A stretch of DNA of 64,000 nucleotides from Patescibacteria group bacterium (GTDB taxonomy: Bacteria; Patescibacteriota; Doudnabacteria; UBA920). The number at the start of each line of letters is the position of its first letter. The stretch's first letter is position 1. Below the pieces are notes generated by a model. That model saw nothing but the letters and a program-made list of their open reading frames with translations, was not told where the DNA came from and did not search any database. Location of the stretch: NCBI GenBank assembly GCA_036726225.1, contig DAIMCS010000005.1, positions 3,808-67,807 on the forward strand. Direction: 5' to 3'. Below, one piece after another: positions 16,449-32,004 of this stretch. The translations under genes were made by a program, and so were the position numbers.

Positions 16449-16964
16449 ATGTCTTCAAATACGTTCGAGTTACTTGGCTTTTCCAATCCCTTGGACGATT
16501 ACCCGTCTCCGATTGTCCCCATAGGCAGGCTTAACGGTCAGCTTGTGGCGGTGTACACCACAATGAAAGATGGAGTATCTCACGTTACTGAGACTTTGTC
16601 CGAAGAAGCGGCATTCGATCGGCTCACCCCTGAGCTTAAAGATGCTTTGGGAGGATTCGACTACCTGTTCGATAACCTCTACGCCGTAACGTCAACCGAC
16701 GTTCGCAAATATCATGTTGCCGACCAAAAAGAGTTTTTTCTTTCTTTACTGGCCGACGACAATTTTGCGCCCGACAATCCTTTTGCGCGGTTAAGTATTG
16801 CTCAGCCTACCGGCGAACCAGCCATAATTTTAGCGGAGATAAAAAAATGCTATAAAGGACTGGGTAAAACGCCGAGATTCAAGAAGGCTTGGTTGATCCA
16901 AGAAATCGAACAAATGCGAGCTGATGGGATCGACGTCGCAGAAATCGAAACACTTCTGAAATAG
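16449..16964 (+). CDS. Hypothetical protein
   Basis: ORF with a terminator at 16980-17029. Confidence 0.45.
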   Translation: MSSNTFELLGFSNPLDDYPSPIVPIGRLNGQLVAVYTTMKDGVSHVTETLSEEAAFDRLTPELKDALGGFDYLFDNLYAVTSTDVRKYHVADQKEFFLSLLADDNFAPDNPFARLSIAQPTGEPAIILAEIKKCYKGLGKTPRFKKAWLIQEIEQMRADGIDVAEIETLLK

Positions 16965-16979
16965 ACCTCAAACATCTTT

Positions 16980-17029
16980 TGATATCCGGTGGCAATTTCG
17001 GTTGCTATCGGATATCTTATTTTTTTACA
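16980..17029 (+). terminator. Intrinsic terminator
   Basis: gatatccggtggcaa...ttgctatcggatatc hairpin followed by ttattttttt. Confidence 0.5.
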
Positions 17030-17039
17030 AACATCCTCC

Positions 17040-17069
17040 TTGCCGCAATAGGCTTTTTATTTTATAATA
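17040..17069 (+). promoter_or_regulatory. Sigma70-like promoter for tRNA-Gln
   Basis: TTGCCG, 18-nt spacer, TATAAT. The tRNA 5' end lies 21 nt downstream of the -10 box. Confidence 0.4.
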
Positions 17070-17073
17070 TCTT

Positions 17074-18624
17074 CTAGCTTGTCATATTCTTGGGGCGTAG
17101 CCAAGCGGTAAGGCACGGGCCTTTGAAGCCTGCATTCCCAGGTTCGATCCCTGGCGCCCCAGCCAAGACAAAACTTAGGTTAGTTTTAGAGAAATTTTTT
17201 CGTGCGACGCAGAGCGTCGCCCATTGTTTTACGGGGGATTCTTCAACTTTTTTATTTCGCAAAATCAGGTTCGAGCCGAAGATTTTTTGGAGGGAGGATT
17301 TTTTGGAGGGGAGGTCGTCTCCTTTTGCTATTTCGTCTAGCGTTGAAGCGTCCTTTATCCACTCTCGCATAGGTTCGAGCCACAGACTTCCCCCTCTTTG
17401 CGACTTGGCCAGAACTTCCTCAACCGATCTCTTTTCGGACATAGCCTCTCGCTTCTTGGCGAGGTAGGTTTCTCGGTCTATGTCCTGTTCAACAAAGAGG
17501 TCGGTAAGGCGGTCTATCTTGGCGTTAAAGACGCTTAATCGCTCCCGTAAGCTGTGGACTAAGGTTGCCGTAGTCTTGGAGCTACCTTTCTCGTCCTCGT
17601 CTGCGAGAGCCAATAACCCTTGCGTCCAATCGCTCGGCATTGCGTAATGTGTGAGTATTTCGGATAGGTCGGCGGCGAGGACTTCTTCTCTCACAAAAGG
17701 TTGAGAGCAACGAGCCGCCGATTTTTTTGTACAGCGATAGTAGATGTGGCCTTTCTGCTCCTCTGCGGTTATGCCCATACCGCACTCCCCGCAACGCAAA
17801 AGCCCACAAAAGGCTTTCGGTTCTTTATCTTTTCTCATTGGATGTCCACGACGGACAATTACGATCTGAACTTTATCAAAAAGGTGTTTGTCTATGAGTG
17901 GCGTATGTTTGCCCTCGTACATTTCGCCAGCGTAGCGGAAATGTCCGTAGTAAAAAGGATTAACGAGAATAAATCTTATTCTGTCTTTATGTATGGCGTT
18001 GCCATTTAAACTCTTAACCCCGTTTTCAAAAAGGAATGTAGAAATATCTTCAAGACGAGAGTTGCCTTTAGCGTAAAGCTCAAAGGCGGCTCTGATAAAT
18101 TTCGCTTTCTTCCGATCAACGACTATCGTCTTTGCTCGCACATCATTGAGGTAGCCAACGGGAGCAGTGCCGGGAAACTGTCCGAGCCGTGCCTTATGAT
18201 GTAGCCCTCGGCTTGTATTGGAGCTTAGGTCACGGATAAATTGGTTAGCCATACCAAACTCAACCGACATCATAAGTACATTGTCGTTTGAGAGATGGCT
18301 TCTGTCGTGCGTTTGAATACGCTGAATCGTCCCCTGTTGGAGTAGCCAACTGATCTGTCCGCCGTCCACGGGATTACGAGCCAAGCGATCTAGCTTCCAA
18401 CAAATAATGCCCTGTGCCTCGCCAGTCTGTATGCGTAGGAGCATATCGTTAAAGATCGGGCGACCGGGCATTTTTGCAGTTCGCTTTTCTACAAATTCGG
18501 CCGCAACTTCTAAGCCCTCGCTTTTCGCAAGCGAACGAAGTTCGTCTAATTGACCTTCGATGGAGAGGACTTGTTTATCCTCGACATCAGTAGATTTTCT
18601 AGCGTAAAGAAAGTATCTATTCAT
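17074..18624 (-). CDS. Large serine recombinase (integrase/resolvase family)
   Basis: N-terminal YARKSTD...Q catalytic Ser motif. Recombinase domain. CxxC...C zinc ribbon and coiled coil. ATG at 18624 (MNRYFLYARKST); the track start at 18702 is upstream. The 3' end reads across attL into the tRNA. Confidence 0.85.
   Translation of the reverse strand: MNRYFLYARKSTDVEDKQVLSIEGQLDELRSLAKSEGLEVAAEFVEKRTAKMPGRPIFNDMLLRIQTGEAQGIICWKLDRLARNPVDGGQISWLLQQGTIQRIQTHDRSHLSNDNVLMMSVEFGMANQFIRDLSSNTSRGLHHKARLGQFPGTAPVGYLNDVRAKTIVVDRKKAKFIRAAFELYAKGNSRLEDISTFLFENGVKSLNGNAIHKDRIRFILVNPFYYGHFRYAGEMYEGKHTPLIDKHLFDKVQIVIVRRGHPMRKDKEPKAFCGLLRCGECGMGITAEEQKGHIYYRCTKKSAARCSQPFVREEVLAADLSEILTHYAMPSDWTQGLLALADEDEKGSSKTTATLVHSLRERLSVFNAKIDRLTDLFVEQDIDRETYLAKKREAMSEKRSVEEVLAKSQRGGSLWLEPMREWIKDASTLDEIAKGDDLPSKKSSLQKIFGSNLILRNKKVEESPVKQWATLCVARKNFSKTNLSFVLAGAPGIEPGNAGFKGPCLTAWLRPKNMTS
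17091..17165 (+). tRNA. tRNA-Gln (anticodon UUG)
   Basis: 75 nt. Near-identical in arms to E. coli tRNA-Gln (TGGGG...GCCAAGCGGTAAGGCA...TTCGAnTCC...CCCCAGCCA). Anticodon loop CUUUGAA. Encoded CCA. Confidence 0.85.
17162..17317. repeat. IR-A (left terminal repeat of the element, about 156 bp)
   Basis: Reverse-complement match to 24641-24805, with one roughly 30-bp divergent patch. Confidence 0.8.
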
Positions 18625-18684
18625 AGTTGTAGTATACCACAACGGATGGTTTAAAACACAACTTTCAGCTATAATGGGATAAAT

Positions 18685-18891
18685 ATGAAAAGTGAAGCCC
18701 AAAAATTAGGCGATAATCTAAAACGAATAAGAACAGAGAAAGATATATCGCAGGGAGATATTGCACGAGCCTTAGAAGTGGATAAGAGTTTTGTCAGTAA
18801 TATAGAAAACGGCAAGACTAACCCGACACTTGCGACGATTGCAAAGATAGCAAAGGCAATCGGTGTTTCGGTTGATGAGTTATTAAAGTAA
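18685..18891 (+). CDS. XRE-family HTH transcriptional regulator
   Basis: Classic HTH_3: ISQGDIARALEVDKSFVSNIENG. Confidence 0.8.
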   Translation: MKSEAQKLGDNLKRIRTEKDISQGDIARALEVDKSFVSNIENGKTNPTLATIAKIAKAIGVSVDELLK

Positions 18892-18896
18892 AAATT

Positions 18897-20429
18897 ATGG
18901 CGACTTTAAATTGGATAGGAAAAGAAGCAGTAGTGAATCACGATAAAGAAGTGCCTTTTAAACTGCTCCAAAAAGTGCCGAGTGCTTCGGTGGGTAAGGA
19001 ATCAAAAAACCTTATCATTCACGGAGATAATCTTGAAGCTCTAAAGGCACTTATACCTTTTTATAAAAGTAAGGTGAAGTGCATTTATATTGATCCACCT
19101 TACAACACAGGCAACGAGGGTTGGGTATATAACGACAAAGTTAATTCTCCCAAAATCCAAGAATGGATTAAGAAGGTTGTTGGACGAGAGGGAGAAGATT
19201 TGACCCGCCACGATAAATGGATATGTATGATGTATCCAAGAATGAAGTTGCTACGCGACTTACTTGCAAACGATGGTGTAATTTTCGTAAGTATTGATGA
19301 CAACGAACAGCACTATCTAAGAATGGTTATGGACGAGATTTTTGGCGAAAAAAACTTTGTTGCTGACTTCATTTGGAATCACAGGAAATCAGGTCAAAAT
19401 GATATTGATGTATCTTTGTCTCATAATTATACGCTCTGTTATGCAAAAAAAAGAGCTGGACTCTTTTTGAATCGTCTCGCTATTGATGAAGGAAAGTTTT
19501 CTAATCCAGATAGCGATCCACGGGGCGATTGGGTTGCCGACCCTATGGACGCCCCCGCAATCCGAGAAAATTTAATGTATCCAATCATTAACCCAAATAC
19601 GAAACAAACATTTTTACCCCCTGTTGGGAGACATTGGCGATTTACTAAGGAAAAATACGAACAAGCGTTGAAGGATAATAGAATTGTTTTCGGGAAAACT
19701 GGCAAGTCCAAACCACAATTCAAACGCTTTAAAAGCGAAGCAGAGGAAAAAGGCATAAATGTTTTTACTATTTGGGACGATGTAGGAACTGCAACAGAAG
19801 GAACAAAAGAAATAATGGAGCTTTTTGGTGGAAAAAAAATCTTTGATACTCCTAAGCCAACTTCGTTTATTAAGAAAATTATTAAAATTGCTACGAAAGA
19901 TAATTCAATCGTATTGGATTCTTTTGCTGGTTCTGGGACAACTGGACACGCCGTTTTGGATTTAAATAAAGAAGATGGAATCAAACGCAGTTTTATTTTA
20001 GTAGAAATGGAAAATGATGTTGCTAAGAAAATTACCGCCGAGCGTATAAAGAGGGCTATCAAAAAGTATAAATATGATGACGGCTTTGAATATTGCGAAC
20101 TAGCCAAACCGCTTTTCAATGAGAAAGGGCAAATCAATGAGCAATGCACATATGGAGAACTTGCTACTTATATTTATTTTACCGAGACGCGAACAAATGC
20201 GGAAAAGAAGACTATCAAGTCGCCATTCATAGGAGAAAGTGGAGGCGTTTCTTACTACCTTATTTATGAAGGCAGAGATAAGAACGATCTCACTCGTTCA
20301 GCCCTTACGAAGTTGAAAATAAAGAAGCCAGCCGTAGTTTATGCGGATCGCTGTTTGGTGGACGAAGATGAGTTAAGAGAAAAAGGGATTGTATTCAAAC
20401 AAATCCCATACGAGATAAAAGTTTACTAA
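18897..20429 (+). CDS. Type III restriction-modification methyltransferase (Mod, N6-adenine, beta class)
   Basis: DPPYN motif IV precedes FAGSGTTG motif I (permuted order). The adjacent Res helicase-nuclease supports the call. Confidence 0.8.
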   Translation: MATLNWIGKEAVVNHDKEVPFKLLQKVPSASVGKESKNLIIHGDNLEALKALIPFYKSKVKCIYIDPPYNTGNEGWVYNDKVNSPKIQEWIKKVVGREGEDLTRHDKWICMMYPRMKLLRDLLANDGVIFVSIDDNEQHYLRMVMDEIFGEKNFVADFIWNHRKSGQNDIDVSLSHNYTLCYAKKRAGLFLNRLAIDEGKFSNPDSDPRGDWVADPMDAPAIRENLMYPIINPNTKQTFLPPVGRHWRFTKEKYEQALKDNRIVFGKTGKSKPQFKRFKSEAEEKGINVFTIWDDVGTATEGTKEIMELFGGKKIFDTPKPTSFIKKIIKIATKDNSIVLDSFAGSGTTGHAVLDLNKEDGIKRSFILVEMENDVAKKITAERIKRAIKKYKYDDGFEYCELAKPLFNEKGQINEQCTYGELATYIYFTETRTNAEKKTIKSPFIGESGGVSYYLIYEGRDKNDLTRSALTKLKIKKPAVVYADRCLVDEDELREKGIVFKQIPYEIKVY

Positions 20430-20430
20430 T

Positions 20431-22704
20431 ATGAAACTAAAACGCTACCAAGAAAACGCAATAGAAAAACTGGAAGAGTTTTTAGCGTTGCTCAAAAAGC
20501 AAAAGCCAAAACTTGCTTTCTATGAATTGACCGAAGAAAAATATAATGCCGAGTGGTTCGGTGATGTGCCTTTTGTTTGTATACGCATACCGACTGGTGG
20601 CGGAAAAACACTCGTCGGCTGTAAGTCAGTTGAACGGATAATGTCTATCGCATTACAGCACAAAATGGATACGGGTATTGTGATGTGGTTCGTGCCGTCC
20701 GATTCAATAAAGACGCAGACACTAAAAAAGTTTAGAGATTTGAAAGACTACCACTATGAAATGCTCAACGATTCTTTTGATACTAAGTTCAAAGTCTTTT
20801 CTAACGAGGAAGCACTTACCATTACGCCCGAAGATGTAAGAAATAATCTTTGTATTGTAGTCGCCAGTTTAGACGCTTTCCGTAAAGATCAGAAGATACA
20901 AAATAAATACAAGGTTTACAAAGAGAACGGGTCATTGATGGATCATTTCCAAAACCTTAAAGATGATTCGGCTCTTGAAAAAGATAAAGCGGGAACAGTC
21001 GTAAGTTCGTTAGCGAATGTCGTTCGTAAAAATAACCCACTCATTGTGATAGACGAAGGTCACCATACGCAAACAGAGCTATCAGTAGATATGCTTAAAG
21101 GACTTAGACCCTCTTTCATTATTGAGTTCACGGCTACGCCAAGAGACGGGAGCAATGTGCTTGTTCATACAAGTGCTTCGGAATTGAAAATTGAGGAGAT
21201 GGTAAAGATTCCTATTGTGCTTGAAAGTCGGACACAATGGGAACAGGTAGTCGCTGACGGAATAGCAAAGCGTGAGGAGCTTGAAAAACGAGCTAAGAAA
21301 CTTAAAGGCGAGTACATCCGCCCAATAGTTTTGCTTCAAGCCCAACCGAAAAGCAAAGTTAAAGCGACAATAACGATAGAGCAACTCAAACAGATGTTGC
21401 TTGATAAAAAAATTCCTGAAGAACAAATAAAAATAAAGACTTCGGAAGCTGATGAATTAGAAGGAATTGATTTGTTCTCTAAGAAATGTGAGGTGCGATA
21501 TATTCTCACAGTAAACGCACTTGCAGAAGGTTGGGACTGCTCCTTCGCTTATGTGCTTATTTCTGTTGCGAACTTAGGAGCAAGAATAGCAGTAGAGCAG
21601 ATTATCGGACGTGTTATCAGAATGCCTAACGCTCGCCGCAAAGAAGACGAAGCAATGAATCGCAGTTATGTATTTGCTTCTTCAGTAGATTTTAACGAGG
21701 CGGCGGACAAGGTTATCAAGGGACTTGTGGATAACGGATACAGCAAGAACGACCTTATTAGTGTTGCTGACGAGAAAGACTACTCCGATCCGTTAGAAGC
21801 GAAGAAGGCAATCAAAAAAGATTTGAAAGTGCCGATGATGACGCTCGGCAAAGACAAACTTTCCTTTGAAGACCTCTTGGGTGAGGACTTCAAATTAGCA
21901 AAACAGGACGCAGACTTTGATTTTAAAATCCATTATGACTTTGACGGGCAAGCAACGATAGATATTACGGAAGATGATGAGTGGCTACAAGGCAAACAGT
22001 TGAGCTTGCCGTATCAGTATCTTGAAGGCAATCACTCCGTTGAGGAATTAGCGTCTTGGCTTGATAAGAAGCTCCGCTTCCCAATGCTCAACCCCGACGA
22101 CAAAGCCGTCTTTATTGAAAGGGCTGTTCAAACGCAGATAAAGAAAAAGCGTAAACTCGCTGAATTATCGGTGAATAGATATTTACTCGCCGATCGCCTA
22201 AGTGTGGTGATAAATGAAATTCTTGAATTGTATACGAAAAAGATTTTTAACGGCTTGATGGCAAAAAAGAGCATTACTCTTGGTCTATTTGATTCGTATC
22301 CGACAACGATCACTCTCAAGTCGCCTGTGCCGAGGGTGTTTAATAAAAACCTATACGAGAGAATAGATGGTATCAACGGCGAGGAACGCGCGTTTGTAGA
22401 GCGTATTGACTTGGGGGCTTTGGATAATATTGAATACTGGGTGAGAAACCGAGAAAAAGTAGACCCGTTCTACATTCAAGGTTGGCGTAAAGGAAAGTTT
22501 TATCCCGACTTTGTGGCTATAACCAAGAAAGGCAACATCGTTGCCCTTGAATGGAAGGGAGAAGATCGCGTAAGCAACGAGGATACCGCCTACAAAGTAG
22601 AAATAGGAAATATTTGGGAAAAACTTGGTCGTGGTAAAACCTATTTCTTTCTCGTTCATAATGGGAATACCGAAGAAGTTTTAGGTAAACTGCGAAACCT
22701 ATAA
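20431..22704 (+). CDS. Type III restriction enzyme Res subunit (SF2 helicase + PD-(D/E)xK nuclease)
   Basis: Walker A PTGGGKT. DEGH box VIDEGHH. C-terminal YPDF...EWK nuclease motif. Start codon overlaps the mod stop. Confidence 0.8.
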   Translation: MKLKRYQENAIEKLEEFLALLKKQKPKLAFYELTEEKYNAEWFGDVPFVCIRIPTGGGKTLVGCKSVERIMSIALQHKMDTGIVMWFVPSDSIKTQTLKKFRDLKDYHYEMLNDSFDTKFKVFSNEEALTITPEDVRNNLCIVVASLDAFRKDQKIQNKYKVYKENGSLMDHFQNLKDDSALEKDKAGTVVSSLANVVRKNNPLIVIDEGHHTQTELSVDMLKGLRPSFIIEFTATPRDGSNVLVHTSASELKIEEMVKIPIVLESRTQWEQVVADGIAKREELEKRAKKLKGEYIRPIVLLQAQPKSKVKATITIEQLKQMLLDKKIPEEQIKIKTSEADELEGIDLFSKKCEVRYILTVNALAEGWDCSFAYVLISVANLGARIAVEQIIGRVIRMPNARRKEDEAMNRSYVFASSVDFNEAADKVIKGLVDNGYSKNDLISVADEKDYSDPLEAKKAIKKDLKVPMMTLGKDKLSFEDLLGEDFKLAKQDADFDFKIHYDFDGQATIDITEDDEWLQGKQLSLPYQYLEGNHSVEELASWLDKKLRFPMLNPDDKAVFIERAVQTQIKKKRKLAELSVNRYLLADRLSVVINEILELYTKKIFNGLMAKKSITLGLFDSYPTTITLKSPVPRVFNKNLYERIDGINGEERAFVERIDLGALDNIEYWVRNREKVDPFYIQGWRKGKFYPDFVAITKKGNIVALEWKGEDRVSNEDTAYKVEIGNIWEKLGRGKTYFFLVHNGNTEEVLGKLRNL

Positions 22705-22710
22705 AAAGAT

Positions 22711-24558
22711 ATGAGACTACTCAATTTTAGAATTAAAAATTATAAGTCCATCACCGATTCAAAAGATGTATTCCTCTCCGAGTTGGATAACATTACTATC
22801 CTCGCGGGACAAAATGAATCTGGTAAAAGTTCTATTTTACGGGCTTTGAATGATTTTGAAAGCGGAGAATTTGAAAAAGATTCAGTTCCTTTTTCACTTG
22901 AAAACGAAACTCAACAATCCGTGAGTTGCACTTACCGGATTGAGGATCAAGACAACCTAATTGAGCTTTTGACCGATTCAGTCATTGAAGATTTTTCTCT
23001 TAAATTACAGGAGGGTGAACAGATTTTGGATAAAGAGAAAATTGCGAGAATAAAAAACTTTACCCTAAGCCGCATAAGTGAAAAAGACGCTGTTCGTCTT
23101 GAGTTAGATGACGCAACTTTCAATATTTTTAAATCCGCCGTTCTTGAAAAACCGGCAATACCAAATCCAACTGCCGAGCAAGAACAGGGTGATGTTGTGA
23201 AAGAAAAGTATATCGCTGTTTCTGAAGATATGAATAGTAAAGTTGCCGAAATATTTTGGGCAAATTGCCCAAAGGTTGTTTACTTTGATGATTTTTGTGA
23301 CTTACTACCGGACAAGATTTTTATTTCAGCTCTAAAAAATAAGCAAAAAGATACACAGGGATATAAAGCCGTGAGGAACTTAGAGAATATTCTCAAAACG
23401 GATTTTGTATCAAAGGACGGAGAAGTTGATTCCCGACGAAGAACCAAAGAGACGCGAGAAAACGATACTCTTTCAATTGATTTCCAAAATGATTGGGGTC
23501 AAAGGATACACGGAGAGAACAAGGTTATCGTCAAGTATAATTTTGAGAAGCGTGTCGGTGATAATGAAAATGGTTCTTATGTTAATTTCTTTGTAGAAAC
23601 GAAGGAGGGGCAACCTCTACCACCTAAGCAAAGGAGTAAAGGATTGATTTGGTTTCTATCTCTTTGGCTTGAACTCAAAGCACAAAATGCTTCCGGTAAT
23701 GATTTAATTCTTCTATTAGATGAGCCAGATCAACATTTACATGTTAAAGCTCAAAAAGATATTTTAAAACTTATAAATAAACTTGCGACAACTACCGAAG
23801 TTGAAGAATCAGAAGCAGAGCGACGCGGCGATCAAATAATCTACGCTACTCATTCGCCCTACCTCATTGAGATAGAGCGTTTAAATCGCGTAAAGTTGAT
23901 AATCAATTCAGAAAAGCAAGGAACTCAAGTTGAAGATATTGCGACAAGCAAGATAAATACCGAGTTCAAAAAAGACGCCCTACAACCTATTGTGGACGCA
24001 ATAGGGTTAAGTGTTAATGAGTTTTCTTCGTTAGACAAAAACAATATTATTCTTGAGGGGATTTCGGATTTTTATTATTTCTCTGCTTTTAAGAAGCTCT
24101 TACAACGCACCGAAGAGTATAAGTTTATTCCGGGAATCGGCGTTAGGCAGATAAATAATCTAATATCTCTTGCTATCGGCTACGATCTCAACTGGTTGGT
24201 TATCATTGATGATGATCCAACTATTGGCGGGAAAGATTCAAAGAAGAAATATGACGAGATAAAAGACCATGTTTTTGATGGTGATTCAGCAAAAACGGAC
24301 AAGAAGGTAAATATTTTGAGCGGAATCGTTGGAGTAGAAAACATGTTTACGATTGACGACTTAAAATTAGTTGATTCAAAGGTTAATACTAATACCGATA
24401 TGGTTAAGGTTGTGGGGAAAAGGAGAAAAGTCTTGTTTGCTCAAATGTTTTATGAAAAAGTCTTGAGTGGAGAGATTACAAAGGATAAGCTATCACAATC
24501 TTCCATCAATAACTTTACCCAAGCCTTTGATTTTATTGACAGAGGTATGACCATCTAA
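22711..24558 (+). CDS. OLD-family ABC-ATPase/Toprim nuclease (class 1 OLD or fused PARIS-like AriAB)
   Basis: GQNESGKSS Walker A. LLLDEPDQHLH Walker B/D-loop. C-terminal Toprim with EGISD and IIDDD motifs. No adjacent helicase. Confidence 0.7.
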   Translation: MRLLNFRIKNYKSITDSKDVFLSELDNITILAGQNESGKSSILRALNDFESGEFEKDSVPFSLENETQQSVSCTYRIEDQDNLIELLTDSVIEDFSLKLQEGEQILDKEKIARIKNFTLSRISEKDAVRLELDDATFNIFKSAVLEKPAIPNPTAEQEQGDVVKEKYIAVSEDMNSKVAEIFWANCPKVVYFDDFCDLLPDKIFISALKNKQKDTQGYKAVRNLENILKTDFVSKDGEVDSRRRTKETRENDTLSIDFQNDWGQRIHGENKVIVKYNFEKRVGDNENGSYVNFFVETKEGQPLPPKQRSKGLIWFLSLWLELKAQNASGNDLILLLDEPDQHLHVKAQKDILKLINKLATTTEVEESEAERRGDQIIYATHSPYLIEIERLNRVKLIINSEKQGTQVEDIATSKINTEFKKDALQPIVDAIGLSVNEFSSLDKNNIILEGISDFYYFSAFKKLLQRTEEYKFIPGIGVRQINNLISLAIGYDLNWLVIIDDDPTIGGKDSKKKYDEIKDHVFDGDSAKTDKKVNILSGIVGVENMFTIDDLKLVDSKVNTNTDMVKVVGKRRKVLFAQMFYEKVLSGEITKDKLSQSSINNFTQAFDFIDRGMTI

Positions 24559-24563
24559 GGGAG

Positions 24564-24597
24564 TTTGCCGATCTTCCAAGACGGCAAAAGTTTTTAA
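24564..24597 (+). terminator. Putative terminator of the XRE-mod-res-OLD operon
   Basis: ttgccg...cggcaa hairpin followed by aagttttta. Confidence 0.35.
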
Positions 24598-24640
24598 CAC
24601 GCGCACGGGTAGGGTGGGGCAAGTGTTATGTCTTGCGTGA

Positions 24641-24805
24641 CGACCTCCCCTCCAAAAAATCCTCCCTCCAAAAATCTTCGGCTTTGTATTCTTGAATCTG
24701 TATTTTGCGAAATAAAAAAGTTGAAGAATCCCCCGTAAAACAATGGGCGACGCTCTGCGTCGCACGAAAAAATTTCTCTAAAACTAACCTAAGTTTTGTC
24801 TTGGC
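24641..24805. repeat. IR-A' (internal inverted copy of the left end)
   Basis: Reverse complement of 17162-17317. Shares the 5-bp GCCAA core with IR-B. Confidence 0.8.
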
Positions 24806-25091
24806 TCGTCTTTATAGTACCGCTCGAACGATTTTCATGGAAGATTTGGGCTAGTTTACCTAGTCACGCGGGTAGTCACTCGCTCCTTGCCCGAATGACT
24901 AGGGAGTATTGCTGAAAGCCCTAGTGAACACGGGGTCTTTCATCAATACCATCTCACAAAAAAGCAGTCCTACTTCACTCCGCTCCTCCTAGCGTCCGTC
25001 GCTCCGTGAAAATGTCACGGGTTCGTGTCTGGTGGCTCGGCCTTTGCTTCCGTCCTGCTAATTCTTTTTGCTCGTTGGTGGGGGGGGGTAA
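24801..25091. repeat. IR-B (internal inverted copy of the right end, 291 bp)
   Basis: Perfect reverse-complement match to 31010-31299, except G9 versus C8 in the homopolymer tract. Confidence 0.85.
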
Positions 25092-25146
25092 ATCGTGATT
25101 GAAAAATAAAATAAAAAATCGTTCAAGGCCGCTAGGCCGAGCGAAT

Positions 25147-26478
25147 TTATTTTTCAAACCAATTTTTTAGTTTTTCTTCTACAATATCGCGTGGAGTAGC
25201 GTAGCGTTCCCGCGATATTTTTAAAATAGTTTCTCGGTCTGCTTCGTATCCCGATGTTTTGAGCGGGGGCATAGTGATCGCCGAGAAAGCGTGAGACATT
25301 TTTCCGTCTATAAGAAGACGGAGAGCAATATGGTGGTTATCTAAATGCTCCAAGTCTTCGCTCGTAAATACTGGCTTCATTTCTTCCGCTAATTCCTTAG
25401 CGTCGTAATTCCCAACGCGGAAAGAAAGTATACTGCCTACATTGCCAAAAACAGCGTGTTTTATGGCCTCCGGTAGCTGATAGAGGTATTGGTGGGCTAT
25501 GTTTAAATTAAGGCGGTATTTACGAGCTTCGGAGAGGATAGACGGGAAAATGTCGGTGGAGAAGTTTTGAAACTCATCTATGTAGAGGTAAAAGTCTTTG
25601 CGTTGTTCTTCGGGTAGATTCTGACGTTCCAAAGCGGAGAGATACATTTTAGTAATAATGGCCGACCCTAAAAGGTTGGATTTATCCTCGCCGACTTTCC
25701 CTTTGGATAAATTGGCCAAGAGGATTCTTTTGTTGTCCATAACAAAACCGAAGTCCACCGAGCTTTTGGGTTGGCCGACAATATTCCGCATTTGAGGAGA
25801 AGTGAGAAGTTGTCCGACTTTGTTTTGAACTGGCGAGATTATTTCTTTACGAAAACGCTCGTCATAGTTTTCGTAATCATCTACCCAAAACATTTTTACA
25901 ATCGGGTCTTTGATATTCCCGACAATGAGTTTTCTGAACTCATTGTCCACGAGCATACGATACACGCCGAGTAAAGTTTGTCCGGGCGTATCCATCAAAG
26001 CCAAGACGCAGTTGTATAAAATGTGTTCAAGACGCGGACCCCAAAAATCTTTCCACAAGTGCCTGAAAACGGAAATCAGAGACGAGGCGACGAGATGTTT
26101 TTCATCATCACCTTTCGCTTCCAGAATATTGATAGCGACGGGGAAAGATGTGTCCGCAGGATTGAAATAGACAACTTCGTTCGTGCGAGTTTTCGGTATG
26201 TAGTTTAATAAATCTTCAACCAAGTCGCCGTGAGGATCAATCAAAGCAACGCCGTGATTCAAGCGTAAGTCTTGAATCACCATATTTTTAAGGAGCGTTG
26301 ATTTGCCCGTTCCTGTTTTACCGATAATGTAGATATGATTCCGGCGATCTTGCGTCTTTATGCCGAACGCGCGACGCTGTTCCCTGAATGTCGTTTCGCC
26401 GAGAGATTCTATTTCGTCTAAATGATATTCGTCCAAAGGCGTAAAAACTGTTTCCCGAAGTTTTCCTTCCAAAGACAA
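25147..26478 (-). CDS. Soluble TraD/VirD4/TrwB-like P-loop ATPase (type IV coupling-protein-like, FtsK-HerA superfamily), no TM anchor
   Basis: IIGKTGTGKST Walker A. ALIDPHGD. FYLYIDEFQNF Walker B. LNIAHQ. Paralog of 27204-28712. Confidence 0.55.
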   Translation of the reverse strand: MSLEGKLRETVFTPLDEYHLDEIESLGETTFREQRRAFGIKTQDRRNHIYIIGKTGTGKSTLLKNMVIQDLRLNHGVALIDPHGDLVEDLLNYIPKTRTNEVVYFNPADTSFPVAINILEAKGDDEKHLVASSLISVFRHLWKDFWGPRLEHILYNCVLALMDTPGQTLLGVYRMLVDNEFRKLIVGNIKDPIVKMFWVDDYENYDERFRKEIISPVQNKVGQLLTSPQMRNIVGQPKSSVDFGFVMDNKRILLANLSKGKVGEDKSNLLGSAIITKMYLSALERQNLPEEQRKDFYLYIDEFQNFSTDIFPSILSEARKYRLNLNIAHQYLYQLPEAIKHAVFGNVGSILSFRVGNYDAKELAEEMKPVFTSEDLEHLDNHHIALRLLIDGKMSHAFSAITMPPLKTSGYEADRETILKISRERYATPRDIVEEKLKNWFEK

Positions 26479-26703
26479 AGGAGCGATTACTCGCTCCTTG
26501 TCGTGTGCCTATATGTTTTCGTTATGTTCATTCCGTCTTTAACCAATCGGGGAACGATTGCCTAAAGTTCGGGATTAGCTCGTATTCCCCAAGCTGTCCC
26601 GCCCGCAACATCTTTTTAGCAAGAGAAGCGAGGGTAATGAAACTTAATGAAGTTTATACAACAAATGCCGTAAATAAGTCAAGGTAATGGTAAAATAACA
26701 CAA

Positions 26704-27207
26704 ATGGATTATAAAATTGATGTTGAAAATTTCACTCTACCAAACGGACAGACAGTTGAGGTTTCCAAACGCATTTATTCTTTCCAAAAGTGGAGAGGAG
26801 ATGAAATAAAAAACGACTACGGCGGTAAGGCGGTATTAGACAATGAAGGTAGTCCGCTTTTCGCTGAACTTGTAATACTACGGCTTTTGGAAAAAGAAGG
26901 TTGGTCTGGTATTTGGGTTGATACTTACGGCAAAAAGTTTAGGATGGGTTTACCAGAGAAATCTGATCCTATTTCGTTGCCTCCCGAGAAGCAAAGTTTA
27001 TTAGATAATATTTCAAAACAGGCGGGCGGATTTAAGGGTTGCTGGGATGTTTTTGCTTGGAAGGACAACGAATATCTTTTTGCCGAATCTAAGCGTATCG
27101 GCAAAGATTCAATACGCGATACTCAAATCAATTGGCTCTTTACCGCTCTCCAAGTGGGTATTCCTATCAAATCGTTTTTGCTCGTAGAGTGGAATATACA
27201 GAATTAA
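26704..27207 (+). CDS. Hypothetical small protein with a possible PD-(D/E)xK nuclease motif
   Basis: CWDVFAW...FAESKR fits D-x(n)-E-x-K. Sits between the two paralogous ATPase genes on the opposite strand. Confidence 0.3.
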   Translation: MDYKIDVENFTLPNGQTVEVSKRIYSFQKWRGDEIKNDYGGKAVLDNEGSPLFAELVILRLLEKEGWSGIWVDTYGKKFRMGLPEKSDPISLPPEKQSLLDNISKQAGGFKGCWDVFAWKDNEYLFAESKRIGKDSIRDTQINWLFTALQVGIPIKSFLLVEWNIQN

Positions 27208-28712
27208 AGTTTTCTTTTCGGCTCTCTAAAACTCTTTGGTTCGTCTAATTTCATTAACTCCTCTCGTCGTGCTTGATATTCTTCCTCAATTTCTTTGCGT
27301 TCCCGCAGATAGTTTTTTCCTATCTCACTTGAAGCTACCGCCGCAACGAATTCTTTTTCGTCCATTTCTGCAAATTCGTGAGGCGGAGGGAGATCGAGCG
27401 TTCGGACGGCGATAACTCCACCATCATTTTTATTTTTAATAACACATGACCGCCGTGGGAGTTCCTGAAGCCCTTGTATGTATGCTTCCCATCCCGGCGG
27501 GTCGTTGTAAATTGAGGCGAGAGATTCTTTAGCTAAAATATTAGAATCGTCCCGTGAGATTCTAAAATACGCTTGAAGTTCGCAGTTGGTAAGAATAGAG
27601 GCTCTCAAAGTTGTGGGAAGTTGAGCGAGATTTTGATGTGCCAGCAAAAGAGCGAGCTGATACTTGCGGGCTTCTGCGAGCATATCTTTAAAACTATCCG
27701 TTGCAAAGTTTTGAAACTCGTCTATGTAGAGATAAAACTTTCGGCGTTGAGGCTCTGGTGTATCTGTTCGGGAGAACGCCGCCGCCTGTATTTTCGCAAT
27801 AAGTAATGAGCCTAAAAGATCAGCACTCCCTTTTAGTCTGCCTTTATCCAGTTTAACGAGCAAGATTTTACCATCGTCCATAATTTCACGCAGATTGAAA
27901 GAACTTTTAGGCGAGGAAAGCATTTGTCCAACCTTGCCGTTAAACAAAAAGGCGTTCACTTTATTCAGAGTGGATTCTGCCCACTCGTCCTGTGTCCTGC
28001 GGGGTAAGCTATTAAATCTCTGAAAATATTCTCGGCAAACGCCGTGTTCAACTTTCTCTAAAATCTTGTTGCGTACTTCAAGGTCGGTAAGAAATAGAGG
28101 CAGTTCCGCAAGCGTAAGGTTATTTTGAATAAGAGCGACTAAAGTATTTTTTAGCAAAGCCTCCATTCTTGCACCCCAAGCGTCAATCCAAATTTTCTCA
28201 AATGCCCCTGTGAGTTCCAAGGCAATAGAATCAGCGTCTTCTCCCTTAGTGATTTCTAGCGGATTGAAAGTCACAATCCGTTCCGTGTTAGTTAGGTCAA
28301 CAAGAACGACACGCTCTTGGAGAAATTCGGGGTTATCTTTATTGAGAGCATACAAATATCCTTTTATGTCTTCCGTTAGGTCGCCGTGAGGATCAATAAC
28401 GCCAAACCCTAAACCATTTTCTATATCCTGCTTTACGAGCGATTCCAAAAATTTAGTTTTGCCGCTTCCCGAAGCACCAATAACATAAAAGTGAGTAGCT
28501 CGTGCCTCTTGCGACACGCCTTTCAGTTGGTATACCTCTTTGCCCTCGTCTATATTCTCAAACGAGGCGATACCCAAAGCCAACTCGTTAGGTGCGGGTT
28601 TTCTCATACGCACCTCTGGCACGAGTTCACGCTCGGAAAAGAGCGGGGCTTTGGGCTTTTTCGTGGTAAGCCAACGCCACAAAATTTTGAGGCGATCTTT
28701 TAACATATACAA
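27204..28712 (-). CDS. Soluble TraD/VirD4-like P-loop ATPase, paralog 2, with a charged C-terminal tail
   Basis: IGASGSGKTKF Walker A. VIDPHGD. FYLYIDEFQNF. LLAHQ. Collinear with 25147-26478. Confidence 0.55.
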   Translation of the reverse strand: MYMLKDRLKILWRWLTTKKPKAPLFSERELVPEVRMRKPAPNELALGIASFENIDEGKEVYQLKGVSQEARATHFYVIGASGSGKTKFLESLVKQDIENGLGFGVIDPHGDLTEDIKGYLYALNKDNPEFLQERVVLVDLTNTERIVTFNPLEITKGEDADSIALELTGAFEKIWIDAWGARMEALLKNTLVALIQNNLTLAELPLFLTDLEVRNKILEKVEHGVCREYFQRFNSLPRRTQDEWAESTLNKVNAFLFNGKVGQMLSSPKSSFNLREIMDDGKILLVKLDKGRLKGSADLLGSLLIAKIQAAAFSRTDTPEPQRRKFYLYIDEFQNFATDSFKDMLAEARKYQLALLLAHQNLAQLPTTLRASILTNCELQAYFRISRDDSNILAKESLASIYNDPPGWEAYIQGLQELPRRSCVIKNKNDGGVIAVRTLDLPPPHEFAEMDEKEFVAAVASSEIGKNYLRERKEIEEEYQARREELMKLDEPKSFREPKRKL

Positions 28713-28720
28713 AAATGGCT

Positions 28721-29239
28721 TTATGAAATGTTCAAAAAGCCGTGCGTGTGGGTATCAACTTTAGTGAAATCAAGATTCAATTCCTTTAGCGATTCGTTCA
28801 CGGCACTTTTCAACGATTCGTGGACGATTGTGACAAAAGCCGACAATTCCTCGGTCTTGAAAATATCAAGCTCCATTATATTACTTCCACCAATCGCTCT
28901 TGCGAGGTGCGGTAGTTCTTTCTCGTCCACGACGAGATACCATGAGACCAGTAATTGCTTGCCATAGTCTCTTGCTCCCGCATAGATAATCCAACCTAAC
29001 ATTGCTTCGTTTTTGATCTCAATCATCTCCCGCATTTGGCTACCGCCACCGCCACGAAATAAGCCCTTTACGGCCGCTCCCAATCCCGTGCTGATATTTT
29101 TCTTTTCTGCCACAATGCCGGGGATACCCGCCGCTTGAACATTGGACATAAAAGCCCGTAAGATTTTCTCGCTCTGCCCATTCGCTCCACCGATTGAAGC
29201 AAACCAACGCTCGGTAATGTTTTGATTTTTTAGGGACAT
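28721..29239 (-). CDS. Hypothetical protein
   Basis: ORF in an operon with the ATPase and the DHFR-like gene. No motif recognised. Confidence 0.35.
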   Translation of the reverse strand: MSLKNQNITERWFASIGGANGQSEKILRAFMSNVQAAGIPGIVAEKKNISTGLGAAVKGLFRGGGGSQMREMIEIKNEAMLGWIIYAGARDYGKQLLVSWYLVVDEKELPHLARAIGGSNIMELDIFKTEELSAFVTIVHESLKSAVNESLKELNLDFTKVDTHTHGFLNIS

Positions 29240-29360
29240 ATAAGATTTTGTTAAACAACTGCTTAATTAAGGCCGAACGACTAGACGGCCAAGAAACATT
29301 ATCTACATTTTAGCACTATTTTAAGTTTTTCTTTGGCGGCAAATTCTTTGCTCTTCAAAC

Positions 29361-29975
29361 CTATTTCACTAAAGATTCAGTCTTGAGCGGTCCGGTCGGT
29401 TCGTAGGTTGCAAATATTATGCCCGTAGGTAGAATTTTTGCGTATACCTGTTTGAAGCGTTCCGGTTGTGTGCCATCAGCGAATAATTTTTTGCCGGTGC
29501 CGATAGTAACGGGAAATGTCCAGATATGCATTCGATCTATGAGGTTGTTTTTAAGAAGCGTTTGTATAAGGTTGCTGCTACCGTACATCAACAGGTCAGG
29601 ACCATTTGATTTTTTAAGCTTTTTTATTTCTGCCACTACGTCTCCCGTAATAAGCTCGGAATTGCTCCAAGAGGGTTTAAAAGGTTTATGTGACACAACA
29701 TACTTTTTCGCGCGATCGAACTTCTTTCCCCACCGCGGCTCTGTTTTGTGTTTCGGCCAGTAACCGGCAAAAATATCATAGGTGAGTCTTCCCAAGAGCA
29801 GATCAAAAAGAGCATCCTGTATTTTTGTGTCGAATATATTGTCCCCTTCTTCGCCCCCATAACCGCCCTGCCAACCTCCGTATTTGAACCCTTCAGCTGT
29901 ATCTTCCTTCGAGCCACCGGGAGCTTGCATAACCCCGTCAAGGGTAATCATTGTGGTTGTGATAATTTTTCTCAT
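29361..29975 (-). CDS. Dihydrofolate reductase-like protein (RibD C-terminal domain family)
   Basis: MRKI...TLDGVMQAPGG start, a central GxxxL...VSHK region and a C-terminal YAKILPTGIIFATYEP pattern typical of RibD_C/DHFR-like proteins. Confidence 0.6.
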   Translation of the reverse strand: MRKIITTTMITLDGVMQAPGGSKEDTAEGFKYGGWQGGYGGEEGDNIFDTKIQDALFDLLLGRLTYDIFAGYWPKHKTEPRWGKKFDRAKKYVVSHKPFKPSWSNSELITGDVVAEIKKLKKSNGPDLLMYGSSNLIQTLLKNNLIDRMHIWTFPVTIGTGKKLFADGTQPERFKQVYAKILPTGIIFATYEPTGPLKTESLVK

Positions 29976-30066
29976 AATGTTTTATGGTTAATGTTAAATT
30001 ATTTCAAAAGTTCTTCCATTGGAACGCCTAACGCTTTGTGGCAAATTCTTAAATCTATTTTACCAC

Positions 30067-30930
30067 TTATTCCAAAATCGTGTGAGGCGTGTCGTCTTTA
30101 GGTGACTTCCAAATTGCCTCTAAAATCTTTTTGGCTGTTGTTAGGGTATATTCCGTTTCGGGAGCGAATAAAAACAATCTGCTTCCCGTACCTGCATTGT
30201 CGCCGCTCTTTCCAGCGTTCCGTAAACTCTCACTCCGTCCTTTGGACGGGGTGAGAGTGAGGACGCGGAAACGAGAAAGGCGGAGTTTCTCTTTTAATCT
30301 GTTGTCGCTCCACCACGACCAGTAAATCTTCAATTTATTTACAAACCTCTCGGTCGTCATTGTGCCTCTGTCGGCTTCAAGAAAATAGTTTATTTCCCCT
30401 CCTTCGTGAAGGATTGTAAAAAATGCGTCGGGAACGAGTGAGGGATTTTCGCCGCTCGCTTTTCGCAAAAGTTCTTTCAAGTCGTGTCCTTGAAACCAAC
30501 GGAGAATTTTTATCCCGCTCTCTTCGGTGGCGAGCGTAAGACAAATTCTAAATTGAGAAATCATTAAGGAATGGGCAATCAAGGGGAGTGTTCTTTCATT
30601 TTCCCGCAGACGGCGATAAATCCCTGCACGCTCGGTAGCGTCTTTTGAGAGTAGTTCCGCACCTTTGCGTCCAAGGGTGTAAACCATGTGCAACGAGGAA
30701 AGTTTGGCGGAGGTTTGGCTTTTCGGCCGATCAAGGTAGCCGTGCTGAAAGAGAGAAGCGAGCCGTCGGAGTAGATTCCTCTCTCCGCCTTGGTGCAAAG
30801 CCAAAATCTGGGGAGTGTTCATAAAGCGAAACTCTCCCACCGAGCGTAAGAGTTCAATGTCACGGGGCTGGAGCTGGAGGGGGTCGGCGACCTCGCTACG
30901 GACAAATTTTTTATGTATAAGGTTAGACAT
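30067..30930 (-). CDS. Replication-relaxation family protein (HTH N-terminus), putative mobilization/replication initiator
   Basis: N-terminal LQPRDIELLRSVGEFRFMNTPQILALH is Replic_Relax-like. This family commonly neighbours TraD/VirD4-like ATPases. A TATAAT box lies in 30931-30960. Confidence 0.5.
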   Translation of the reverse strand: MSNLIHKKFVRSEVADPLQLQPRDIELLRSVGEFRFMNTPQILALHQGGERNLLRRLASLFQHGYLDRPKSQTSAKLSSLHMVYTLGRKGAELLSKDATERAGIYRRLRENERTLPLIAHSLMISQFRICLTLATEESGIKILRWFQGHDLKELLRKASGENPSLVPDAFFTILHEGGEINYFLEADRGTMTTERFVNKLKIYWSWWSDNRLKEKLRLSRFRVLTLTPSKGRSESLRNAGKSGDNAGTGSRLFLFAPETEYTLTTAKKILEAIWKSPKDDTPHTILE

Positions 30931-31009
30931 AGAGGAATACCCTAATTATACGCCTACCGACCCCCTCAAACGAGGCCTTCTGCTTCCGTCCTATCCTTTT
31001 TTCTTCGTC

Positions 31010-31299
31010 TTACCCCCCCCACCAACGAGCAAAAAGAATTAGCAGGACGGAAGCAAAGGCCGAGCCACCAGACACGAACCCGTGACATTTTCACGGAGCG
31101 ACGGACGCTAGGAGGAGCGGAGTGAAGTAGGACTGCTTTTTTGTGAGATGGTATTGATGAAAGACCCCGTGTTCACTAGGGCTTTCAGCAATACTCCCTA
31201 GTCATTCGGGCAAGGAGCGAGTGACTACCCGCGTGACTAGGTAAACTAGCCCAAATCTTCCATGAAAATCGTTCGAGCGGTACTATAAAGACGAGCCAA
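31010..31299. repeat. IR-B' (right terminal repeat of the element)
   Basis: Reverse complement of 24801-25091. Ends at the GCCAA core abutting attR. Confidence 0.85.
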
Positions 31300-31341
31300 C
31301 AAAAAACTCATCCACGTTAGGCGGATGAGTTTTTTGTTTTG
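31300..31341 (+). terminator. Displaced intrinsic terminator of tRNA-Gln (right half of the ancestral attB)
   Basis: ctcatcc-acgttaggc-ggatgag hairpin followed by ttttttgtttt, immediately after attR. Confidence 0.55.
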
Positions 31342-31369
31342 CAGCCAAGATAAGTGATATAATAGATTT

Positions 31370-31747
31370 ATGGATTCAGACAAAAAACTTGAAGAACAAA
31401 TAAACGAATATGCCGCGCTTGCCAAGGAAAACCCCAAGATTGATGCAGCGGCCCTAATGGTAAGCGCGCTTCAAAGCCAAAGACCCCAGTCAGTTTCACC
31501 CAAGGCTAAAAGGTGGGCGTATTTAATTTCCATTGGCATACCACCTTTAGGCTTACTGTTCGCCTTAAATTATTTTATGAAAGACGACGACGAATCCAAG
31601 CAAGTGGCCTGGATGTGCGTAATTTTAACAATTGCCGCTATTATTATGTTTTGGCTATTCACCAAACTTTTATTTTCCGGGTCCGGGACTTCCCTGCAGC
31701 AAATCCAACAAATCAAACCTAACGACATATACCAGCTCAGCCAATGA
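31370..31747 (+). CDS. Hypothetical membrane protein
   Basis: Two predicted TM segments. ORF only. Confidence 0.4.
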   Translation: MDSDKKLEEQINEYAALAKENPKIDAAALMVSALQSQRPQSVSPKAKRWAYLISIGIPPLGLLFALNYFMKDDDESKQVAWMCVILTIAAIIMFWLFTKLLFSGSGTSLQQIQQIKPNDIYQLSQ

Positions 31748-32004
31748 ACCTAGAACAAGAAATTCAGACAATTAAAGACAGAAACAGAAATGTGGAGATG
31801 GATAAGGCCTGGGAAACCTCGGCTGTGCGGAGATTTTTTATTGCTGTTGTAACTTATGTTATTGCTTTTGTCTGGCTACTTATGATCCACGACACTACTC
31901 CTTTTTTAAAAGCTTTTGTACCCGCGGCCGGATATATACTTTCCACTCTTTCTCTACCTGTACTTAAAAAATGGTGGCTCACAAAAAATCAAAAACATGC
32001 ATAG
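31744..32004 (+). CDS. Hypothetical membrane protein
   Basis: Two TM segments. Overlapping start/stop with its neighbours. Confidence 0.4.
   Translation: MNLEQEIQTIKDRNRNVEMDKAWETSAVRRFFIAVVTYVIAFVWLLMIHDTTPFLKAFVPAAGYILSTLSLPVLKKWWLTKNQKHA

Follow-up and report, generated by a model that had tools for sequence, protein, structure and literature searches.

Patescibacterial serine-integrase elements at tRNA genes, with an inverted second attP as their apparent hallmark

A 64,000-nucleotide (nt) stretch of a Patescibacteria genome (contig DAIMCS010000005.1, positions 3,808 to 67,807; hereafter the window) carries an integrated element of 14.1 kb, at 17161-31299, which adjoins the 3' end of a tRNA gene and encodes a large serine integrase. 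Besides the attachment (att) sites at its two ends, the element holds a complete attP at its centre, in inverted orientation. Relatives with the same layout were found in many genomes of the Patescibacteria (Candidate Phyla Radiation, CPR), and the element probably belongs to a family of large-serine-integrase elements that is specific to this group and in which the inverted second attP divides the element into two cargo bays. The family is large and apparently undescribed, with the second attP as its apparent hallmark, and its structure is that of a serine-integrase integrative element with several unexplained conserved features. The original prediction for this DNA had likened the arrangement to that of the yeast 2-micron plasmid; its structural part proved correct and general, and its mechanistic analogy was mostly not borne out.

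A repeat search of the element gave three inverted pairs. The longest, of 296 nt (24792-25087 and 31013-31308), is 99% identical and has as its sole mismatch the homopolymer, G9 versus C8, that had been noted before. The other two are 100% identical over 105 nt (17161-17265 and 24702-24806) and 36 nt (17284-17319 and 24639-24674). The left-end copy had been described as about 80% identical with one divergent 30-bp patch; in fact the identity is complete on both sides of a patch that measures 18 nt at the left end (17266-17283) and 27 nt at the centre (24675-24701), and this 9-nt indel gives an in-frame TGA in the centre copy. Reading of the sequence showed that the centre (24639-25087) is the reverse complement of ...GTACTATAAAGACG AGCCAA GACAAAACTTAGG..., that is, of the right end (the P arm), the core and the left end (the P' arm). 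Since the repeat pairs meet at AGCCAA, the centre is a complete attP, inverted, between attL (17161) and attR (31299), and the excised circle would carry two attP-spanning inverted repeats of about 450 base pairs (bp), just as had been proposed.

To place this layout, relatives of the recombinase were collected from one-genome-per-species contigs (277 in all), and the best 80 of them, 53-95% identical, were used for the analysis of the layout. All 80 lie in metagenome-assembled genomes (MAGs) of Patescibacteria. By self-BLAST, the last 110-170 nt of the recombinase gene have an inverted copy 0.25-9 kb upstream in about 60 of the 80, and on contigs that are long enough a second inverted pair abuts the first with an overlap of 3-5 nt. 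Hidden Markov models (HMMs) for the two half-sites recovered the order attR, arm, joined P and P' half-sites, arm with the recombinase, and P' joined to the tRNA in about 50 loci, so that the homologous elements with the same inverted-repeat layout which the original prediction had proposed to look for do exist. The canonical layout is present in closed long-read chromosomes as well, for example OY970354.1 (L007), and the reading of junctions in 8 complete relatives gave exact joins of P to P', of tRNA to P' and of P to B' (the distal half of attB), with cores of 3-6 nt. In one locus (L069) a 35%-identical paralogue is bracketed by the same kind of repeat, next to a tRNA. Outside the CPR the nearest relative, on a Sulfitobacter plasmid at 32% identity, has no such repeats. 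Plasmid and phage collections held only relatives of at most 32% identity, and a scan of viral contigs gave no match; a plasmid or phage lifestyle was rejected, since such collections have only these distant relatives and the nearest one lacks the repeats. In our coverage of the literature, which is incomplete and therefore gives absence of evidence only, we found neither a natural inverted second attP in a serine-integrase element nor this family, in agreement with the earlier remark that the layout seemed undescribed for serine-recombinase elements.

The recombinase is a large serine integrase by its domains: a Resolvase catalytic domain (PF00239, E = 2e-17) with the N-terminal motif YARKSTD containing the serine nucleophile, a recombinase domain (DNA-binding domain 1, DBD1; PF07508, E = 3e-13) and a zinc ribbon (DBD2; PF13408, E = 8e-10). 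Its relatives in the PDB are SPbeta SprA, 3guv and the A118/LI integrase 4kis, where the match covers residues 161-299. A serine invertase switch of the Hin/Gin/Pin type was considered and rejected because this is a 516-amino acid (aa) large recombinase with recombinase and zinc-ribbon domains, and because its sites are integrative att sites at tRNA genes. The minus strand of the P' arm contains the final ~52 codons of the recombinase before the core, and the open reading frame (ORF) continues through the core into the antisense strand of the tRNA gene. It had been proposed that the C terminus thus differs between states, with tails of 29 and 18 aa. The ORF does cross the core and its end does change between states (the protein P0011, on contig L127, has the P-arm tail); by translation, however, the post-core tails have 28 codons from tRNA antisense and 15 from the P arm, and the form of the integrase in the attP state has 503 aa. 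In a cluster of near-identical recombinases the tails have several origins, namely two different tRNAs, the cognate P arm (P0011) and a foreign P arm, which indicates that the recombinase lineage is mobile.

In the relatives examined, the insertion point is invariably the very 3' end of a tRNA. The targets include more than 12 tRNA species, among them Gln, Asn, Ile, Leu, Ala, Tyr, Glu, Val, Arg, Thr and Trp, and in addition ends resembling transfer-messenger RNA (tmRNA) and tRNA 3' halves downstream of long intron-like insertions; 95%-identical recombinases occupy different tRNAs. Targets like a tmRNA 3' end, with a T-arm and acceptor after a long structured region, were recognized by eye in L024, L029, L044, L051, L059 and L081. 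Genes with intron-like insertions of about 190 nt were seen at L067:9441-9696 and, near the recombinase end, in L054 and L072, and tRNA genes interrupted in this manner are missed by ARAGORN and by the Rfam tRNA model.

Beside the core, the P arm mimics a T-loop (AAAATAGGTTCGAGC...). In the window the T-loop of the tRNA, GGTTCGA (17141-17147), lies 24 nt from the end of AGCC, which is the B-type spacing, and the P-arm mimic CGTTCGA lies 28 nt from it. Across the family the spacing between the GTTC motif and the beginning of the shared P' repeat falls cleanly into two classes, 20 nt for B-type (55 or more junctions) versus 24 nt for P-type (46 or more). In known large serine integrases the motif bound by DBD2 is nearer to the centre in attB than in attP, by 5 bp for LI and by 4 bp for SPbeta (PMC11722253). 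The 4-nt offset matches this attP/attB geometry, and the GTTC motif would then be the DBD2 site. An alternative in which mimicry of the tRNA by the P arm makes attR attB-like and attL attP-like was rejected, because the offset marks two distinct types of half-site. The three junctions, as reconstructed for the window and 8 relatives, fit a reaction of attP with attB to attL and attR with a short crossover identity of 3-6 nt. B' is not conserved; P' is conserved and has a terminator-like hairpin, in the window GCGACGCAGAGCGTCGC followed by a T-run, which would end transcription of the tRNA after integration. Long P arms show near their inner boundary a conserved module, TTGGCGGGGG...TTTGAAAnnGAATGGGCGG (L013, L018, L050, L057, L060), and GC-rich tetraloop-type hairpins lie further out; P arms are thus larger than a half-site.

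The centre has conserved features of its own. Arm copies within an element are 99-100% identical, compared with 80-87% between close relatives, which points to concerted evolution. The centre copy of P' almost always carries an insertion of 9-11 nt at one position, with a difference in length of 7-11 nt in most relatives; the insertion (TTTGnATTyyT) interrupts a T-loop-like motif, GGTTCGAGCC, which is unbroken in the recombinase copy (in the window, within the 18-nt patch), and it usually creates a TGA. In the recombinase copy this motif, which in antisense codes for FGSNL, lies 105-112 nt from the core. The insertion is absent from L016, L023, L044, L061 and L074. Between the cargo terminator and the centre P' copy, 37 of 50 centres (for example in L001, L016 and L053) have a hairpin with a G-rich loop of consensus GCGCAyGGGTGGGTGGGGCAA. 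Its stem shows compensatory changes at all 6 pairs and is 90.9% paired, and none of 500 shuffles attained the observed score. The G-loop hairpin, the patch and the inner module of the P arm had no match to an Rfam family. In L127:1-175, compared with L128 and L130, the homology between siblings breaks inside the G-rich loop and an unrelated sequence containing the end of an ORF abuts it, possibly as a hairpin-targeted insertion; a reading of this foreign sequence as the end of an insertion sequence was rejected as it has no Pfam hit.

The state of each P' copy with sufficient context was then tabulated. The recombinase copy is joined to a B-type half-site in 58 cases and to a P-type one in about 5-7, and the centre copy to a P-type half-site in at least 46 cases and to a B-type one in a single case, L067. 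In the window integration occurred through one copy, as had been predicted, and this is the recombinase-proximal one. The exceptional locus, L067, reads as a tRNA-Thr with an intron-like insertion, a centre-type P' with patch and hairpin, the recombinase, P' and a tRNA-like end, and the identity of its P' copies has fallen to 83%. A reaction between the internal attP and a second attB would give just such a product, so that the internal attP was used at least once, which agrees with the earlier suggestion that it may be. Other loci show larger assemblies of the same parts. At L089:606-8480 two different recombinase arms flank and share one P-flanked cargo arm, L076:2251-15447 has four copies of a 386-nt arm, and at L060:12268-21100 a second element of the family adjoins the first. 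In L130 the centre attP (1230-1339) is from another subfamily than the P' at the recombinase end (3876-3949), with 41 nt of the inner repeat in common; such a non-cognate centre indicates mosaic exchange between family members, and L089, L076 and L130 together show that the arms behave as modules. Contig L127 was considered as an excised circle, and this was not retained because its sibling L130, with the non-cognate centre, leaves the state of L127 ambiguous.

From the geometry of the sites we infer the following course. The integrase would read the T-arm and acceptor 3' end of tRNA and tmRNA genes as the B half-site; the P half-site of attP would be the T-loop mimic, which is set 4 nt farther out. 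Crossover within the last 3-6 nt of the tRNA would leave the tRNA intact, with the P' arm giving it a new terminator. The bay with the recombinase is bounded by P' arms of about 160 nt and the bay without it by P arms of 150-390 nt. Excision by attL and attR would give a circle with two inverted attPs, of which the recombinase-proximal one would nearly always serve for integration. The internal attP would stay recombination-competent in the chromosome, where it could engage another tRNA attB and split or exchange the bays (as in L067) or let bays of different elements join into chains (as in L089 and L076). The long, near-identical arms may also permit occasional inversion of the bay without recombinase, most likely by homologous recombination rather than by flip-flop through the integrase.

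Several observations weigh against this picture. Some relatives (L002, L022, L059) lack a centre within 10 kb and another (L004) resembles a simple element running from P' to P, so that the second attP is not obligatory. Use of the internal attP is clear at one locus only. The junctions of recombinase copy with P (L127, L037, L089, L093, L004) could belong to chromosomal chains instead of excised circles. The only contigs with flipped junctions (L115, L116, L084) come from short-read data and pass through a repeat of about 290-296 nt, which exceeds the read length. Finally, the proposal leaves unaccounted for the keeping of a full inverted attP, the 9-11-nt patch insertion and the G-loop hairpin. 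A bolder extension, which we put forward tentatively and regard as rather doubtful, is that of a natural two-attP cassette system with T-arm mimicry, in which an obligatory inverted attP makes the halves exchangeable cassettes and double or sequential reactions at paired tRNA genes exchange, split or take up DNA, that of the host between such genes included. The paired attPs might in addition form a folded duplex site when the DNA is transferred as single strands. If the cassette proposal were true, the family would drive the shuffling of cargo and tRNA-linked genome rearrangement in Patescibacteria, and would offer integrases with a broad and predictable target.

Misassembly had been named as a possible origin of the repeats. 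A palindromic or chimeric joining of integrated and excised forms would produce them, and most short-read contigs do break inside these repeats, as would be expected. However, unique sequence flanks the centre on both sides, L094, a contig of 16.7 kb from an independent assembly, runs from the host flank through the recombinase and the centre across all of the second arm, arranged as in the window, and about 50 diverged relatives, closed long-read chromosomes included, share the architecture. As an account of the architecture an artefact is already refuted, and we give it almost no credence; it is live only for the three flipped contigs. In two of these, L115 and L116, the 296-nt repeat leads from the host flank at attR into the cp1 end of the cargo arm; in five others (L113, L114, L117, L125 and the window) it leads into the relaxase end. 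The third, L084, from an ~80%-identical relative, joins the centre to the relaxase end. All three could be repeat-resolution chimeras. These contigs bear on the proposal made originally, of flip-flop isomers of either arm as in the 2-micron plasmid or herpesviruses. In this reading the integrase recombines the inverted attP repeats and both arms isomerise continually, which would amplify the copy number or switch the tail of the recombinase. It is favoured by the position of the crossover core within two long identical inverted repeats, by the flipped junctions, by the concerted evolution of the copies and by the attP-attP tetramers formed by the SPbeta integrase in vitro (PMC11722253). Nevertheless, we consider such flip-flop unlikely. 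The orientation of the recombinase arm is almost always fixed (58 joins of the recombinase copy to a tRNA versus 1 of the centre copy), and in about 10 comparisons between lineages the homologous cargo arms face the same way with respect to the centre, a single contig being discordant. The long contigs (the window, L094, L082, L092) are all canonical; the flipped paths run through the 296-nt repeat, where 5 canonical to 2 flipped fits random resolution. Directionality rules also disfavour reactions of attP with attP, attL or attR (PMC11722253). A fixed recombinase arm, concordant cargo arms and ambiguous flipped contigs together mean that there is no 2-micron-like equilibrium, although inversion may occur, and the free flipping of either arm that had been predicted was not upheld. 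Like the 2-micron plasmid with Flp and FRT, the inferred circle would have long exact inverted repeats that contain the recombination target and split the molecule into two unique regions, one of them encoding the recombinase. Unlike that plasmid, the element has a serine integrase, is integrated in the chromosome and keeps its recombinase arm fixed, the two isomers do not occur at comparable levels, and no replication module was detected. The sole possible link to replication in the window is the Pfam name 'Replication-relaxation', no closed circular contig of the element was found, and no replication-initiator family was seen among the 25 Pfam families listed of the 59 matched by 64 cargo proteins of relatives. 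The mainly defensive cargo and the lack of a replication module in relatives argue against a role in amplification, for which the element gives no support.

Three other explanations were weighed for the second attP. In transferred single strands the inverted attPs could pair into a stem of about 450 bp that serves as a double-stranded att, promoter or priming site, with mismatch correction homogenising the copies. The copies are indeed perfectly complementary over 105 + 36 and 296 nt, point differences are homogenised while the 9-11-nt indel persists, as if only small heteroduplex mismatches were corrected, identity between the copies is down to 83% in the fossil L067, which lacks the second arm, and the window has a relaxase and coupling proteins. 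We find this fold-back improbable: most relatives are without relaxase genes, there is no evidence of a single-stranded stage, a serine integrase cutting the folded stem would, on topological grounds, leave hairpin-capped chromosome ends, and the analogous case of CTXphi involves tyrosine recombinases. It is about equally improbable that the internal attP, the copy of the recombinase 3' end and the hairpin act in cis as a regulatory decoy, through titration, autoregulation of a promoter or antisense RNA, at a centre that is not normally recombined. In minimal relatives the recombinase does start just 250-400 bp downstream of the centre, with the conserved hairpin and a terminator in this interval, and the centre copy, if transcribed from the P side, would be complementary to the final ~160 nt of the mRNA for the recombinase. 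But in the window 6 kb of cargo separate the centre from the recombinase gene, a sigma-70-type promoter scan round the centre detected no promoter and nothing else but the terminator-like hairpin of the P' copy, a decoy would have no need of a P arm identical over 296 nt, and L067 shows that the centre can recombine. The last explanation is that two independent elements lie side by side (17161-24806 with ends of ~160 nt and 24792-31308 with ends of 296 nt), each moving via a palindromic joined-end site. Each arm has inverted repeats of its own and arms reassort between relatives, and yet we reject this as very improbable. All three sites, attL, attR and (read as its reverse complement) the centre, carry the core in the same polarity, and cores such as CAC and CTC in relatives contain no palindromic dinucleotide. 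A single arm therefore cannot excise or insert by conservative serine recombination, and by the same polarity attL with the centre, or the centre with attR, can only invert. Accretion of two ordinary elements was rejected as well, because the cargo arm is P-type on both ends, which is impossible from simple elements running from P' to P.

Compared with known systems, the large-serine-integrase prophages and integrative and mobilizable elements (IMEs), such as SPbeta SprA, A118/LI, phiC31 and the streptococcal IMEs (PMC5704250), have the same Resolvase, recombinase and zinc-ribbon integrase, and likewise a short crossover core and attP and attB half-sites distinguished by an outer motif shifted by 4-5 bp. 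Unlike them, the present family has a complete inverted internal attP, conserved family-wide, keeps att arms of 150-390 nt identical, targets the extreme 3' end of many tRNA and tmRNA genes via a T-loop mimic, has an integrase ORF that crosses the core, and resides in Patescibacteria. Targets in tRNA genes are usually the domain of tyrosine integrases. In CTXphi, attP1 and attP2 are inverted, imperfect and about 90 nt apart, and the host tyrosine recombinases XerCD exchange single strands on the folded single-stranded DNA. The likeness lies in two inverted att copies within one element that are able to pair in a single strand; in contrast, the copies described here are perfect, lie 6-7 kb apart and belong to an integrase that cuts double strands. 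Synthetic cassette exchange with phiC31 or Bxb1, of which 10.1101/2020.11.25.398784 is an example, also places a cassette between inverted attPs and swaps it at two attBs, and L067, with its recombinase bay between two tRNA ends, resembles the product; here, however, the element is natural, the exchange is deduced from one locus and the attB partners would be pairs of tRNA genes. The pTN3-type chromosomal inversions of Thermococcales (PMC5495485) likewise have an integrase and att sequences of an integrated element that promote rearrangement between tRNA-linked sites, but with an archaeal tyrosine integrase and no internal inverted attP.

Patescibacteria make up a large share of bacterial diversity, and few of their mobile elements have been described. 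The family is apparently widespread and ferries mostly anti-phage defence genes into the 3' ends of tRNA and tmRNA genes. Its att logic can be read from the sequence (the T-loop at attB spacing, and 4 nt farther in attP) and offers a natural test of the half-site-offset model of directionality. The family also points to integrases with a target that is present in all genomes, namely the 3' end of tRNA genes.

The gene content of the element in the window is given in Table 1. With an integrase, a Replic_Relax relaxase, two TrwB-like ATPases and, by Pfam, no VirB4-type gene among its 11 ORFs, it corresponds to an IME, which has a relaxase or origin-of-transfer module and no complete mating-pore apparatus. 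Pfam confirms the genes of the window. The division into a defence arm and a mobilization arm that had been proposed is not conserved, and cargo varies in both arms. The cargo of relatives is mainly defence (GmrSD, several restriction-modification systems, HEPN, a reverse transcriptase, AAA_15), and relaxase modules are limited to the clade of the window and absent from most relatives.

Table 1. Features of the integrated element and its borders (positions in the window)
Feature	Position	Strand	Basis and remarks
tRNA-Gln(ttg), integration target	17091..17165	+	ARAGORN; Rfam tRNA 63 bits; sequence
attL core AGCCAA	17161..17166	+	Identity segment common to attL, centre (reverse complement) and attR; sequence
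P' arm, recombinase-proximal copy (inverted repeat B, IR-B)	17161..17319	+	Repeat search, sequence
Large serine recombinase, 516 aa, start MNRYFLYARKSTD	17074..18624	-	Pfam Resolvase + Recombinase + Zn_ribbon_recom
Recombinase-arm cargo	18685..24558	+	Pfam
XRE	18685-18891	+	Pfam
Type III-like Mod (N6_N4 methylase)	18897-20429	+	Pfam
Res (ResIII)	20431-22704	+	Pfam
AAA_15/OLD-like ATPase	22711-24558	+	Pfam
Rho-independent-type terminator, stem TTGCCGATC..GACGGCAA then AAGTTTTT	24565..24595	+	Sequence; 3' of cargo operon
Conserved hairpin, stem TAACAC/GTGTTA, invariant G-rich loop GCGCACGGGTAGGGTGGGGCAA	24595..24628	+	Directly inside centre P' copy
Centre P' arm copy (IR-B partner)	24639..24806	-	Repeat search, sequence
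Core of internal inverted attP (TTGGCT on plus strand)	24801..24806	-	Sequence
Centre P arm copy (inverted repeat A, IR-A), with T-loop mimic CGTTCGA	24801..25087	-	Repeat search, sequence
Second-arm cargo	25147..30930	-	Pfam
TrwB-like ATPase	25147-26478	-	Pfam
Unknown, 167 aa	26704-27207	+	Pfam
TrwB/TraG-like ATPase	27204-28712	-	Pfam
Unknown, 172 aa	28721-29239	-	Pfam
RibD_C	29361-29975	-	Pfam
Replic_Relax relaxase	30067-30930	-	Pfam
P arm at attR (IR-A partner); T-loop mimic 31270-31276, core AGCCAA 31294-31299	31013..31299	+	Repeat search, sequence
Apparent displaced native tRNA-Gln terminator (B' side of attB), AAAAAACTCATCCACGTTAGGCGGATGAGTTTTTT	31300..31338	+	Sequence; hairpin + T-run

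Proteins of the element were found on contigs of many independent assemblies, with DNA that is 99.9-100% identical. Because of this identity, a Mod of 498 versus 510 aa and absent recombinase calls in other assemblies reflect gene calling only and were rejected as real differences. One Logan contig (L106) ends exactly at the AGCCAA core (window 17166) and two others (L107, L108) at 17161, with L107-L109 elsewhere than L106; such stops near the attL core may mean that occupied and empty sites coexist, or may just be due to graph simplification. An Rfam scan of window 16500-32000 (E<=1) matched no known RNA family other than tRNA, and the 296-nt arm showed no significant folding (z = -1.6 and -2.0). 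Hairpins equivalent to the terminator of the cargo operon are present in relatives. The flanking genes (EamA, SH3, PBP) are chromosomal, and past 31338 the host flank runs into the PBP gene. Within the second arm, a diverged direct repeat (25517-25605 and 27661-27749, 73% over 89 nt) lies in both TrwB-like ATPase genes, which are thus paralogues within the arm.

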